A stretch of DNA of 64,000 bases from Escherichia coli 042 (GCF_000027125.1 NC_017626.1); one strand, 5' to 3'; positions 958-5,548 are shown, counted from the first letter of the stretch. Program-made: numbers and translations. Notes: generated by a model from the sequence alone, not told the origin.

Positions 958-1419
958 CTATGGATTCTCCATGATGTTTACAAGGGATATAAAAGTAAAA
1001 TAGCTGAAGAAGCTAATGATAACCCGACGTTATCACCAGAAAGGAAAATATAGTTACTGCATTAATGTGTTTTTGTGAACTGAACCGCCCCGGGTTTCCT
1101 GGAGATTGTTTTATCTGTGAACTCAGGCTGCCAGATCGTAAGCGTAAACTGACCGCCGTATGTAGCCATGATGCCAGTATTGGTAACGTAGGTGCACCCC
1201 TATCTATTTTTGTAGAACCGGAGGAAACAGACCAGATAGTTTAAATGAGCTGGTTATGCGTAACATAATTTATCTATTTTGGCTCTTACAAAATAGATAA
1301 AGAAGGAGTATCTGATGAGATACTCCATTATGACAGACTCAACTCATGTGATTTTTCTTAAAGTTCTCTGCTTGCGCCAGTCCCCCCATATAAACATCAT
1401 CATTCGCTACTTGAAGTGG

Positions 1420-1728
1420 TCAACAAAAACTGGCCACCGAGTTAGAGTTTTTCCAGTATCGATTTTCCGATTCGTTTGGGGGTAACCCACCGTTATATTC
1501 GTGCGGTCTTAGTGCGTTGTAATATCCAACGATATAGTCCGTTATGGCGTGAGCTGCCTCGCTGAAGCTTACGTAACCCACCACCGGCATCCATTCGTTC
1601 TTCAGACTCCTGAAGAAGCGTTCCATTGGGCTGTTATCCCAGCAGTTTCCGCGCCGGCTCATACTCTGTCTGATCTGGTATCGCCACAATAACTGCCGGA
1701 ACTGCCTGCTCGTATAATGACTGCCCTG
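1420..1728 (-). pseudogene. IS911-like orfB, C-terminal fragment
   Basis: Translation [46 protein letters not shown]...; IS3-family OrfB C-terminus, separated from the N-terminal part by an inserted element. Confidence 0.75.
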
Positions 1729-1744
1729 GACGCCCTTCTAAGAG

Positions 1745-2821
1745 TCAAGCTGTTATCGGGATACTGTTGATCCGCCTGTTTTGATTGCGCAGTAACGTGT
1801 AAACTTCGCGGGAGATATATCGCTTTAGACAGCGTATCGCTTCCATTTTTGTATGTCCTTCGGCTACACGCCTGGCGACATATTCCTTTGTTTTTGCGTC
1901 AGTTCGTAAGCGTCCGATGGCGATGATGTGAAGTGCACTATTTGCAGCACGATCTCCACCACGATTAAGTCGGTAACGGTTCGTTTTTCCAGAAGAAACG
2001 GGGACCGGGCTGACACCACACAGTGCCGCAAATCCTGATTCTGATCTTAACCGTTGAGGATTGTCTCCGGCAGTGATCAGCAACTGTGAAGCGCTTTCGT
2101 ATCCGATAGCATTACGTTTAATCAGCTCAGGTGCCAACTCGTCGACAATTGCCGCAATCATGACATCCAGATCAGCGATTTCGTCATGTAACTCGAGATA
2201 GCGTCGGGCAAGGGACTTTAATGAAATGCGATAAACGTTGGTTACATTGCGGTATTCACTGGCATCAGGTCTCCAGGAACCCAGGGTCCTGATGAGCTGC
2301 ATGCGCGTCATATTTCTGAGCTGTTCACGTAATTCATCCGGGGCAGAGATAATATTTGAATGGATAATCTGGAGAGCGACTCTGCGGGCTGATATTGCTG
2401 TTTTTCGGCAAGTTTTTAATACCCGCAGGGACTCAATCATGCCATCACGCGTTTTGGGAGTAACTGTCCTGATGCCTGAGAATGCTGCATGAGCGGCACA
2501 TTCAGCATCAATTGTGTCACTTTTACCCCGTTTGCGTCGCTCCATCCGGTCTGGAGCAGTCACCTCAAGAACTTCTAACCCGGCGTTCTGAAAATAACGA
2601 AGCAAACCGGAACCATAGGTACCTGTGCACTCAACACCAATTCGCTTTAATGTCCCAAACGAGGTCATCCATGCCAGCATCTGCCGGTAACCTTGTCGTG
2701 TTGTGGAGAAATACTGAGTCCCAAGGACTTTATTGTTCTGATCTACGACAGCGGCAACGTGCAAATCTTTATGTGTATCCACGCCACCCACAACGGCAGC
2801 TTTGGTAACTTTATCAACCAT
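1745..2821 (-). CDS. IS110-family (DEDD) transposase/recombinase
   Basis: 358 aa; N-terminus MVDKVTKAAVVGGVDTHKDLHVAAV (VGxDxHK motif typical of IS110 family); AGGAG RBS 8 nt upstream of the ATG. Confidence 0.75.
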   Translation of the reverse strand: MVDKVTKAAVVGGVDTHKDLHVAAVVDQNNKVLGTQYFSTTRQGYRQMLAWMTSFGTLKRIGVECTGTYGSGLLRYFQNAGLEVLEVTAPDRMERRKRGKSDTIDAECAAHAAFSGIRTVTPKTRDGMIESLRVLKTCRKTAISARRVALQIIHSNIISAPDELREQLRNMTRMQLIRTLGSWRPDASEYRNVTNVYRISLKSLARRYLELHDEIADLDVMIAAIVDELAPELIKRNAIGYESASQLLITAGDNPQRLRSESGFAALCGVSPVPVSSGKTNRYRLNRGGDRAANSALHIIAIGRLRTDAKTKEYVARRVAEGHTKMEAIRCLKRYISREVYTLLRNQNRRINSIPITA

Positions 2822-2840
2822 GACAGAGCTCCTGTGAGGA

Positions 2841-3102
2841 AACAGAGTTGAATCTCCAGACAGATAACCCGGACAGGACAGTAACGAGACAAGCCGTCAG
2901 GCCCTTCTTGAGTCACGCGCATCGGTGAGGAGATGCCTCGCATGAAGGCGCTTCCGGCAACCGACGGGTCCAGGGCAGGACACAAAAGGTCGATCGCTGT
3001 GTGAGTCAGGATGCGGGAAGGTCTTCACTGCATCAGTAATCACACCAATCTGGTTAAACGGCAAACTAAGTGGTGGTAAAGACTGACATCGGCATTATTA
3101 CT
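2841..3102 (-). ncRNA. Candidate bridge-RNA/non-coding left arm of the IS110-family element
   Basis: ~260 nt non-coding region 5' of the recombinase gene inside the element; by analogy with IS110-group elements this arm is where the guide (bridge) RNA is encoded. No structure was computed. Confidence 0.3.
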
Positions 3103-3633
3103 ATCGCTGTGGAACATCACCCCGCCGGGCTTACCACGGGTTTCCCATGCCATTTCCAGCGCTTTCATGGTGAGCCTGCTGTCCGGCGAGAACGACATGG
3201 CCCAGCCCACTGGTTTTCTTGCGAACAGGTCGAGAACAACGGCGAGGTACGCCCAGCGCTTACCCGTCCAGATATAGGTCACATCACCGCACCACACCTG
3301 ATTTGGCTCGGTCACGGCGAACTGCCTTTCAAGGTAGTTAGGGATAGCAACATGTTCATGACCACTACGTTTATACCGGTGAGTCGGCTGCTGACAGCTG
3401 ACCAGCCCCAGCTCTTTCATGAGCCTGCCAGCAAGCCAGCGTCCCATCTGGTAGCCTCTCCGGGTTGCCATTGTGGCGATGCTTCTTGCTCCGGCCGAAC
3501 CGTGGCTGATGCCATGTAGCTCAAGTACCTGACTGCGTAATACAGCCCGTCTGCAGTCTGGTTTTTCAGGACGGTTTTTCCAGTATCTGTAGCTGCTGCG
3601 ATGAACCCCGAACACATGGCAGAGTGTGACCAC
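3103..3633 (-). pseudogene. IS911-like orfB, N-terminal fragment
   Basis: Translation ...[35 protein letters not shown]...GGVMFHSD then diverges into the inserted element; IS3-family OrfB catalytic region. Confidence 0.75.
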
Positions 3634-3701
3634 AGGATAATGCGCTCTGAGTTTCCCGATTATCGAGAACTGTTCAGGGAGTCTGACATCAAGAGCGCGG
3701 T

Positions 3702-4922
3702 TGTAGATTCAATTGGTCAACGCAACAGTTATGTGAAAACATGGGGTTGCGGAGGTTTTTTGAATGAGACGAACATTTACAGCAGAGGAAAAAGCCTCTG
3801 TTTTTGAACTATGGAAGAACGGAACAGGCTTCAGTGAAATAGCGAATATCCTGGGTTCAAAACCCGGAACGATCTTCACTATGTTAAGGGATACTGGCGG
3901 CATAAAACCCCATGAGCGTAAGCGGGCTGTAGCTCACCTGACACTGTCTGAGCGCGAGGAGATACGAGCTGGTTTGTCAGCCAAAATGAGCATTCGTGCG
4001 ATAGCTACTGCGCTGAATCGCAGTCCTTCGACGATCTCACGTGAAGTTCAGCGTAATCGGGGCAGACGCTATTACAAAGCTGTTGATGCTAATAACCGAG
4101 CCAACAGAATGGCGAAAAGGCCAAAACCGTGCTTACTGGATCAAAATTTGCCATTGCGAAAGCTTGTTCTGGAAAAGCTGGAGATGAAATGGTCTCCAGA
4201 GCAAATATCAGGATGGTTAAGGCGAACAAAACCACGTCAAAAAACGCTGCGAATATCACCTGAGACAATTTATAAAACGCTGTACTTTCGTAGCCGTGAA
4301 GCGCTACACCACCTGAATATACAGCATCTGCGACGGTCGCATAGCCTTCGCCATGGCAGGCGTCATACCCGCAAAGGCGAAAGAGGTACGATTAACATAG
4401 TGAACGGAACACCAATTCACGAACGTTCCCGAAATATCGATAACAGACGCTCTCTGGGGCATTGGGAGGGCGATTTAGTCTCAGGTACAAAAAACTCTCA
4501 TATAGCCACACTTGTAGACCGAAAATCACGTTATACGATCATCCTTAGACTCAGGGGCAAAGATTCTGTCTCAGTAAATCAGGCTCTTACCGACAAATTC
4601 CTGAGTTTACCGTCAGAACTCAGAAAATCACTGACATGGGACAGAGGAATGGAACTGGCCAGACATCTAGAATTTACTGTCAGCACCGGCGTTAAAGTTT
4701 ACTTCTGCGATCCTCAGAGTCCTTGGCAGCGGGGAACAAATGAGAACACAAATGGGCTAATTCGGCAGTACTTTCCTAAAAAGACATGTCTTGCCCAATA
4801 TACTCAACATGAACTAGATCTGGTTGCTGCTCAGCTAAACAACAGACCGAGAAAGACACTGAAGTTCAAAACACCGAAAGAGATAATTGAAAGGGGTGTT
4901 GCATTGACAGATTGAATCTACA
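3702..4922 (+). mobile_element. IS30
   Basis: 1221 bp; left end TGTAGATTCAATTGGTCAACGCAACAG at 3702, right end ...ATTGAATCTACA at 4922; flanked by a 2-bp direct repeat GT (3700-3701 and 4923-4924); inserted at the 3' end of IS911 orfA. Confidence 0.85.
3764..4915 (+). CDS. insI: IS30 transposase
   Basis: 383 aa, [38 protein letters not shown]...; recognised as IS30 transposase. Confidence 0.9.
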
Positions 4923-5185
4923 GTAGCCTTTTTTAATATTTCATTCTCCATTTCAATGCGTTGTAGCTTTTTCCTCAGCTTACGTATTTCGATTTGTTCT
5001 GGTGTTATCGGAGAGGCTTTTGGTGTTTTGCCCTGACGCTCATCACGCAGTTGTTTGACCCATCTTGTCATTGTGGAAAGGCCAACATCCATAGCTTTGG
5101 CGGCATCTGCCACCGTGTATTTCTGGTCAACAACCAGTTGAGCGGATTCGCGTTTAAACTCTGCGCTAAAATTTCTTTTTTTCAT
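4923..5185 (-). pseudogene. IS911-like orfA, 3'-truncated by the IS30 insertion
   Basis: [56 protein letters not shown]...EILKKAT then reads into IS30; the remaining orfA codons ([12 protein letters not shown]) lie on the other side of IS30 at ~3634-3700. Confidence 0.8.
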
Positions 5186-5254
5186 TGGAGCACCTGTGTT
5201 GTTCTGAGGTGAGCATATCACCTCTGTTCAGGTGGCCAAATTCAGTGTGCCACT

Positions 5255-5548
5255 TCAAGTATAAAAGCCAATACCTACTATTAAGATTATTACACTCAAA
5301 ATACAACCCGTTGTCTTGAGTAATAAAGTTCGCAGGTCTTTCAGCCTTTGTGGATGAGAGTGGACATGAACTTTGGGATCAATACTATAATTCCTCTCGG
5401 CAAGTTTTCGTTTATACTCTTCATGTTCAAGTTCGAAGGCCATTGAATTTTCGGCAGCGATAGTTACAAATCTCTCTGCGCTGAATATTAAATACCACAT
5501 GGTCTTATAAAGATTCTGCTTTTGAGGGAGCGGTCTTTCTGTATTCAT
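5255..5548 (-). CDS. Hypothetical small protein with C-terminal hydrophobic segment; 3' end truncated by IS911
   Basis: 97-aa ORF 88 nt downstream of res; its stop codon lies inside the IS911 terminal repeat, so the native C-terminus is lost. Confidence 0.35.
   Translation of the reverse strand: MNTERPLPQKQNLYKTMWYLIFSAERFVTIAAENSMAFELEHEEYKRKLAERNYSIDPKVHVHSHPQRLKDLRTLLLKTTGCILSVIILIVGIGFYT

Follow-up and report, generated by a model that had tools for sequence, protein, structure and literature searches.

An IS911-type insertion sequence (IS) in the pheV-associated pic island of Escherichia coli 042 (GCF_000027125.1, NC_017626.1) has, we are confident, been inactivated by two independent site-directed insertions, one of IS30 and one of an ISEc21-like element of the IS110 family, and also marks a rearrangement junction. 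The nest was studied in a stretch of 64,000 nucleotides (the window, from whose first letter all positions are counted), where it lies between pic and a methyltransferase/helicase operon; further copies of IS911, IS30 or the ISEc21-like element were found nowhere else in the window. Each guest occupies a site for which its element has a known preference, and both insertions recur in hundreds of genomes, points that go beyond a preliminary description of the same DNA. The anatomy of the nest, its recurrence, the complementarity between guides and target, the intermediates and the truncated flanks were observed directly, and genome counts were taken across 5,426 complete E. coli genomes.

One IS911 copy interrupted by two guests

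The host element belongs to the IS3 family and occupies 3846 bp together with both guests. Excising the guests leaves 1249 bp of IS911 sequence (1412-1728, 3103-3701 and 4925-5257 joined), which align from end to end with the uninterrupted IS911 of strain FDAARGOS_1302; the only gaps are two of 1 bp, at bases absent from the FDAARGOS_1302 copy. RefSeq labels that copy and its equivalents 'IS3-like element IS911 family transposase'. The parts of the host are as follows.

1412..5257, minus strand: IS911-type host element, collinear with uninterrupted IS911 at 99.2% identity
1420..1728, minus strand: 3' segment of orfB, from QGSHY to the stop, with the C-terminal part of the rve domain (rve profile positions 74-102, rve_3, rve_2)
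3103..3701, minus strand: 5' segment of orfB, 3' end of orfA and frameshift-stimulator region (HTH_21, rve profile positions 2-73)
4923..5188, minus strand: first 88 codons of orfA, with its start at 5188 (HTH_Tnp_1, E = 2e-14)

The terminal inverted repeats are of the 5'-TG...CA-3' type and intact (TGAAGTGG at 1412 and CCACTTCA at 5257). These repeats, a length of ~1.25 kb, and an orfA (helix-turn-helix, HTH) joined to an orfB (DDE/rve) by a −1 frameshift at an A6G motif are the properties of IS911 within the IS3 family. The 3-bp target duplication of such elements is absent here: the flanking triplets are ACT (1409-1411) and AGT (5258-5260). Because a rearrangement explains the unequal triplets (see below), their difference is no argument against IS911 membership; other IS911 copies do carry the duplication, as GGG/GGG in strains DETEC-P1056 and DSM 103246.

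Both reading frames are interrupted, and this IS911 copy is inactivated twice. The slippery motif (AAAAAAG, minus strand; 4928-4934) lies within a few bases of the IS30 junction, and IS30 cuts it and orfA off from orfB, so that OrfAB transposase can no longer be produced. The ISEc21-like element splits the catalytic core: the 5' piece of orfB (3633-3103) ends at the codons FHSD, in which D is the second catalytic Asp, the 3' piece (1728-1420) begins with QGSHY, and in Pfam a single rve domain is divided at profile position 73/74 between 3103-3633 and 1420-1728.

Alignment and Pfam thus bear out the preliminary description in its naming of an IS911, an IS30 and an IS110-family element. IS30 does occupy 3702-4922 with a GT duplication, at the 3' end of orfA in the frameshift window, the IS110-family element does lie in the catalytic region of orfB, and the IS911 segments, which would have to be collinear across both junctions for that description to hold, are so. 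It had rightly called the IS911 ends intact and the flanking triplets unlike, with the ends placed at 1411 and 5258, each one base outside the true terminus, and the triplets displaced in the same way. Its 'three-level' nest does not stand: there is one host with two guests side by side, and the nest has two levels.

The ISEc21-like element and its target in orfB

The IS110-family guest consists of one gene preceded by a long non-coding region, with 16 nt of non-coding sequence downstream.

1729..3102, minus strand: ISEc21-like IS110-family element, 1374 bp, in the same orientation as orfB, with near-identical copies in many genomes
1745..2821, minus strand: its DEDD transposase/recombinase, 358 aa (DEDD_Tnp_IS110, E = 3e-20; Transposase_20, E = 2e-12)
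2822..3102, minus strand: its upstream non-coding region, 281 nt, a predicted guide RNA (seekRNA/bridge RNA) by analogy with PMC11187229

Copies elsewhere, in many genomes, are 99.7-100% identical to the window element, which RefSeq labels only as 'IS110 family'. Between the window element and the copy on plasmid pMAR2, labelled 'ISEc21 family' by RefSeq, identity is 92.6% in DNA and 97.2% in amino acids, presumably below the level that the ISfinder naming rule sets for the same IS name. From element position ~58 on, the non-coding region is nearly invariant between these two ISEc21 lineages.

Relative to the empty site, the element is a clean 1374-bp insertion without inverted repeats and without a target duplication, as is characteristic of the ISEc21 group of the IS110 family. 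With a slash marking the crossover, uninterrupted IS911 reads CCCTG/ATCGC on the plus strand at this site; in the orientation of the element, the insertion reads CACAGCGAT, the element itself (AGTAAT...GGGCGTC) and CAGGGCAG, giving a left junction GCGAT/AGTAAT and a right junction GGGCGTC/CAGGGC. The target stretch in IS911 is CACAGCGATCAGGGCAG, and within it the site is GAT/CAG, between the D and Q codons of FHSD/QGSHY at the second catalytic Asp of the DDE motif. A full-length copy is present in 518 records, and in 315 of them IS911 flanks the element on both sides; at every fetched locus the element is oriented as orfB. A distant IS3 relative (~69% identical to IS911) has been struck by an ISEc21-type element at the homologous GAC/CAG.

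A core dinucleotide shared by donor and target, as in IS621, was also sought: AT, TC, CG and a single T or C were tried, and none yields both junctions, in agreement with the published insertion of ISEc21 without duplication (PMC11187229).

Guide segments that match both target strands

For ISEc21, the upstream non-coding RNA (seekRNA) has been found to be required and reprogrammable, and its choice of target has been demonstrated experimentally; in its RNA the match to the bottom strand precedes, from 5' to 3', the match to the top strand, and insertion proceeds without duplication (Siddiquee et al. 2024, Nat Commun, PMC11187229). Two segments of the window element are arranged in the same way.

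2992..3001, minus strand: left guide segment CACAGCGATC, element positions 102-111, same sequence as the left target half on its top strand (CACAGCGAT/C)
2969..2978, minus strand: right guide segment CTGCCCTGGA, element positions 125-134, located 3' of the other guide, as in ISEc21

CACAGCGATC has the sequence of the top strand to the left of the crossover and hence pairs with the bottom strand. The segment CTGCCCTG (element positions 125-132, or 125-134 with GA) is reverse-complementary to the target's right half and therefore pairs with the top strand. The non-coding region thus matches both target strands and, as in the ISEc21 group, has the match to the bottom strand on the 5' side of that to the top strand. 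By our own estimate (not a computed control), chance alone would bring a 10-mer and an 8-mer match to the flanks together within 281 nt about once in a million. In the predicted fold, the two guides face each other across a stem-closed internal loop. An Rfam scan of positions 1-9000 at E ≤ 1 returned no match; neither the ISEc21 guide RNA nor the disrupted frameshift structure of IS911 is represented by a curated family.

When extended by two bases, the right guide (reverse complement TCCAGGGCAG) fits the right junction present after insertion (the element end TC followed by CAGGGCAG) better than it fits the uninterrupted target (ATCAGGGCAG); this better fit could reflect pairing with the exchanged strand. 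As candidates for a donor-binding loop we considered AGAAGGGC (element positions 195-202) and TTACTG (219-224), which match the element ends and lie outside positions 8-179; such a role for them is unsupported. Joined to each other, the element ends would read TTGACT-17 nt-AATAAT; this putative promoter would exist only in a circular form, and in the integrated element its −35 and −10 halves lie apart.

The window element resembles the published ISEc21 (PMC11187229) in its length of 1374 bp, its 358-aa DEDD transposase, its long upstream non-coding region, the order of its two guides, its insertion without target duplication and the promoter that its joined ends would form. It differs in its host, IS911 here as against the ISCfr6, ISEc92 and ISEc93 named in that paper, and in its divergence from the pMAR2 copy. 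With IS621 it shares a DEDD recombinase of the same family, a guide RNA from the upstream end, and left and right target guides that flank an internal loop. The IS621 bridge RNA system of Durrant et al. and Hiraizumi et al. (2024) reportedly relies on a CT core common to donor and target, which comes to flank the inserted element on either side, whereas no shared core is visible at the window junctions; nor is a donor-binding loop established for ISEc21.

IS30 beside the frameshift motif

The second guest is an IS30 whose terminal inverted repeats, TGTAGATTCAAT...ATTGAATCTACA, are those of that element. Its transposase of 383 aa is encoded at 3764-4915 and has HTH_38 (E = 2e-24) and rve (E = 4e-14) domains in Pfam.

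3702..4922, plus strand: IS30, 1221 bp, 99.6-99.9% identical to IS30 copies including that of K-12
3700-3701 (left) and 4923-4924 (right), no strand: 2-bp target duplication GT, present as a single GT in uninterrupted IS911

The target GT lies 3-5 nt downstream of the A6G frameshift motif of IS911. An IS30-IS911 junction at the same GT occurs in 1,197 records from 1,167 genomes, K-12 included. In strain 23AR0151 IS30 sits at this GT in the opposite orientation, and in strain ET846 the same GT is occupied by IS30H, which is 90.4% identical to IS30; thus one dinucleotide is used in both orientations and by IS30H, as expected of a preferred site. IS30 prefers two kinds of target, hot spots and IS30 ends, and an IS911 interrupted by IS30A in K-12 (IS911'/IS30A/IS911'') is drawn in Fig. 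3 of the same publication and described in its legend (PMC9333248). For comparison with K-12 we used the fec/nan copy of strain HMS174 and not that IS30A copy. The HMS174 copy has its right IS30/IS911 junction at the same GT beside the frameshift motif, and its IS30 is oriented as in the window and matches the window IS30 at 99.8%; the K-12 copies differ in being further rearranged on the other side and in lacking the ISEc21-like element.

Recurrence of the nest and its intermediates

About one fifth of complete E. coli genomes carry IS30 in IS911 and ~6% carry the ISEc21-like element in IS911; the full nest, with both together, is present in 59 records from 57 genomes and in at least eight contexts, plasmid pMAR2 among them. 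The pMAR2 nest of enteropathogenic E. coli E2348/69 (NC_011603.1, 78580-82425) has an identical architecture, with both insertion points and the 3846-bp span of the window nest. It differs in having the RefSeq ISEc21-family element instead of the 92%-identical variant of the window, and in its flanks, which are an IS1 and another IS110-family gene, without a duplication (AAG/CCC).

Intermediates exist at two loci. At fec/nan there are four states: IS911 alone (FDAARGOS_1302), IS911 with the ISEc21-like element, IS911 with IS30 (K-12) and IS911 with both. The second locus has an empty site in 2,034 genomes, IS911::IS30 with a GGG duplication in DSM 103246 and, in DETEC-P1056, the complete nest flanked by the same GGG. 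The IS911 backbones that house near-identical copies of the ISEc21-like element (≥99.7%) differ among themselves by up to 6%.

In strains FORC_069 and ET846, a ~2.27-kb group II intron with ltrA lies at an identical position in IS911 orfB (window equivalent 3272/3273). FORC_069 carries the same island with a nest 99.9% identical to that of the window, and in ET846 the context is unrelated. The intron is a third site-specific invader of IS911, and the FORC_069 and ET846 nests are four-element structures.

5863-8132 of the fetched FORC_069 locus and 4363-6630 of the fetched ET846 locus: group II intron, at the same orfB position

The flanks of IS911 and the surrounding island

On either side of the IS911 copy lies a fragment of a gene.

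1339..1411, minus strand: left flank, the last 23 codons and the stop of a type I hsdR (73 bp), 99.3% identical to the 3' end of hsdR in strain GCEC19
5258..5548, minus strand: right flank, 97 initial codons of a conserved gene of 168 codons that lies downstream of the helicase (res-like) gene, as judged from the lengths of homologues

The hsdR of GCEC19 is uninterrupted and continues into hsdR-hsdS-hsdM. On the right, the truncated open reading frame (ORF) at 5255-5548 stops after residue 97 at a TGA supplied by the tip of IS911 (5255-5257), and its homologues in Salmonella, Pectobacterium and Cronobacter have 168 aa; the truncation recognised in the preliminary description thus left 97 of 168 codons. 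The missing parts of hsdR and of the 168-codon gene are not elsewhere in the window, and contiguous flanks, as an empty site would show, were found in none of the 20,395 records from the 5,426 genomes. Because the flanks belong to two unrelated truncated genes, a rearrangement is indicated rather than a simple insertion with a mutated duplication, and these findings support the view that the IS911 copy marks a junction formed by deletion or by recombination between two IS911 copies; ACT and AGT would then differ because IS911 sits at that junction. The preliminary description had left a choice between a mutated duplication and a rearrangement; the second holds, with unrelated truncated genes on the two sides that are joined in no genome, and the first falls.

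The nest separates the serine protease autotransporter (SPATE) gene pic from a defence- or restriction-like operon, as the preliminary description had proposed and as the RefSeq annotation of the close relative FORC_069 confirms: the order there is pic, nest, 97-aa ORF, DEAD/DEAH helicase, DNA methyltransferase, S8 peptidase, AAA ATPase, SNF2 protein, integrase and tRNA-Phe.

~5637-16400 of the window (annotated at 14776-25539 of a fetched locus), minus strand: SNF2/AAA ATPase/S8 peptidase/methyltransferase/helicase operon (RefSeq annotation)

Several further observations concern this neighbourhood. The operon at ~5637-16400, which encodes an SNF2-related protein, an AAA ATPase, an S8 peptidase, a DNA methyltransferase and a DEAD/DEAH helicase in an island at tRNA-Phe, looks like a multi-gene defence system more than a plain type III restriction-modification (R-M) system. 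A type I R-M system was lost at the IS911 junction, beside this other restriction-like operon of the island. The 168-aa family, which also occurs in Klebsiella and Serratia, is uncharacterised, has no Pfam match and has hydrophobic C-terminal halves. A ~60-bp stretch at ~1136-1201 matches thousands of E. coli records at 88-97%, often beside an IS66-family tnpC, and is probably the remnant of an IS66-family end between pic and the hsdR remnant. E. coli 55989 (NC_011748.1, 3348729-3362621) matches 3366-5258 at 100% and also shares the right flank at 100%; on its left side, ISEc45 and IS66-family elements replace the ISEc21-like element and the 3' part of IS911, and pic is inverted. The island of 55989 is thus rearranged further around the IS cluster.

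Discussion

The catalytic mechanisms and the promoter function proposed here are modelled on published work on ISEc21 and IS30. IS30 would have integrated at a natural hot spot, the GT next to the IS911 frameshift motif, and the ISEc21-like element by RNA-guided recombination, with its upstream non-coding region encoding the guide RNA. To the left of the crossover CACAGCGATC would pair with the bottom strand, and to its right CTGCCCTG(GA) with the top strand; jointly the two guides would specify CACAGCGAT/CAGGGCAG, the codons H-S-D/Q-G at the second catalytic Asp of IS3-family transposases; insertion would be orientation-specific and without duplication. In a circular form of the element, the right and left ends may assemble the TTGACT-17 nt-AATAAT promoter. 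The IS911 junction itself may have been formed by deletion or by IS911-IS911 recombination, joining the end of hsdR to codon 97 of the 168-codon gene.

Several points weigh against this account. The whole non-coding region is no more stable than shuffled sequence (z = −0.55), and the predicted RNA structure therefore draws on analogy and not on fold energy. The candidate donor-recognition segments AGAAGGGC and TTACTG fall outside the region 8-179 that sufficed in the published ISEc21 assay (PMC11187229). The variant is just 92.6% identical in DNA to the pMAR2 ISEc21-family copy, although its guide region is conserved, and the 24-bp IS30 site around the GT is palindromic only weakly by eye (6/11 symmetric positions). 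This IS911 copy and this ISEc21 variant are known from sequence alone, and the window copy shows neither the order of events nor whether the guests entered here or arrived through recombination with an already nested IS911.

That last point leaves room for a 3846-bp nest that was built elsewhere and arrived in one piece, whether OrfAB supplied in trans mobilised it through the intact IS911 ends or it was acquired by homologous recombination with a nested IS911. The intact terminal repeats would allow this, as would the occurrence of the same nest in at least eight unrelated contexts including pMAR2 and, in DETEC-P1056, the bracketing of the whole nest by a perfect 3-bp GGG duplication; moreover, the window copy stands at a rearrangement junction, so that, on this argument, IS911-IS911 recombination did occur here. 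At the DETEC-P1056 site, however, DSM 103246 has IS911::IS30 with the same GGG and without the ISEc21-like element, and the last step there therefore happened in place. All four states of occupancy exist at fec/nan, and the intermediates at the two loci show that no pre-assembled nest is needed; the window copy has no target duplication, and the guests vary (ISEc21 or its 92%-identical variant; IS30 in both orientations; IS30H), so that several independent assemblies would be required. We therefore consider arrival as a unit unlikely. That all nests descend from one ancestral triple nest, spread by descent and island transfer, with their shared sites reflecting ancestry rather than target preference, we regard as scarcely credible. 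The 99.7-100% identity of the window-type ISEc21-like copies in most nests is what a single origin would give, but the flanking contexts differ, near-identical guests sit in IS911 backbones up to 6% apart, IS30 is inverted in 23AR0151 and replaced by IS30H at the same GT in ET846, single-guest intermediates exist, and the target choice of ISEc21 has been demonstrated in published experiments (PMC11187229).

The remaining alternative concerns the IS911 flanks, in which ACT and AGT differ at one base and could be a 3-bp duplication, changed by a later point mutation, around a simple IS911 insertion. This is very improbable: the hsdR fragment and the fragment of the 168-codon gene cannot join into one target, the flanks are contiguous in 0 of 20,395 records, and the window holds none of the missing gene parts. 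Two site-directed insertions into an IS911 copy that marks a rearrangement junction thus remain our preferred explanation.

More tentatively, and with doubt prevailing, IS911 could serve three or more site-specific elements with unrelated mechanisms as a common landing pad: IS30 at the frameshift region, RNA-guided ISEc21-type elements at the codon of the second catalytic Asp and, in sister strains, the group II intron at a fixed position in orfB. If so, IS invasion would be a systematic route of silencing that turns E. coli IS911 copies into safe harbours, and the ISEc21-like variant, near-identical across diverged IS911 backbones, would be actively spreading at present. The nest itself is real but ordinary, explained by elements and target preferences that are already known; its value lies mainly in annotation, with the element boundaries fixed and current understanding unchanged. 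The nest is also a rearrangement scar, recording the loss of a type I restriction system and of the 3' part of the 168-codon gene next to the pic toxin gene. It provides a natural example of the published RNA-guided targeting of ISEc21, here in IS911 and with a 92%-identical variant, and the genome counts show target preference strongly shaping nested insertion sequences.

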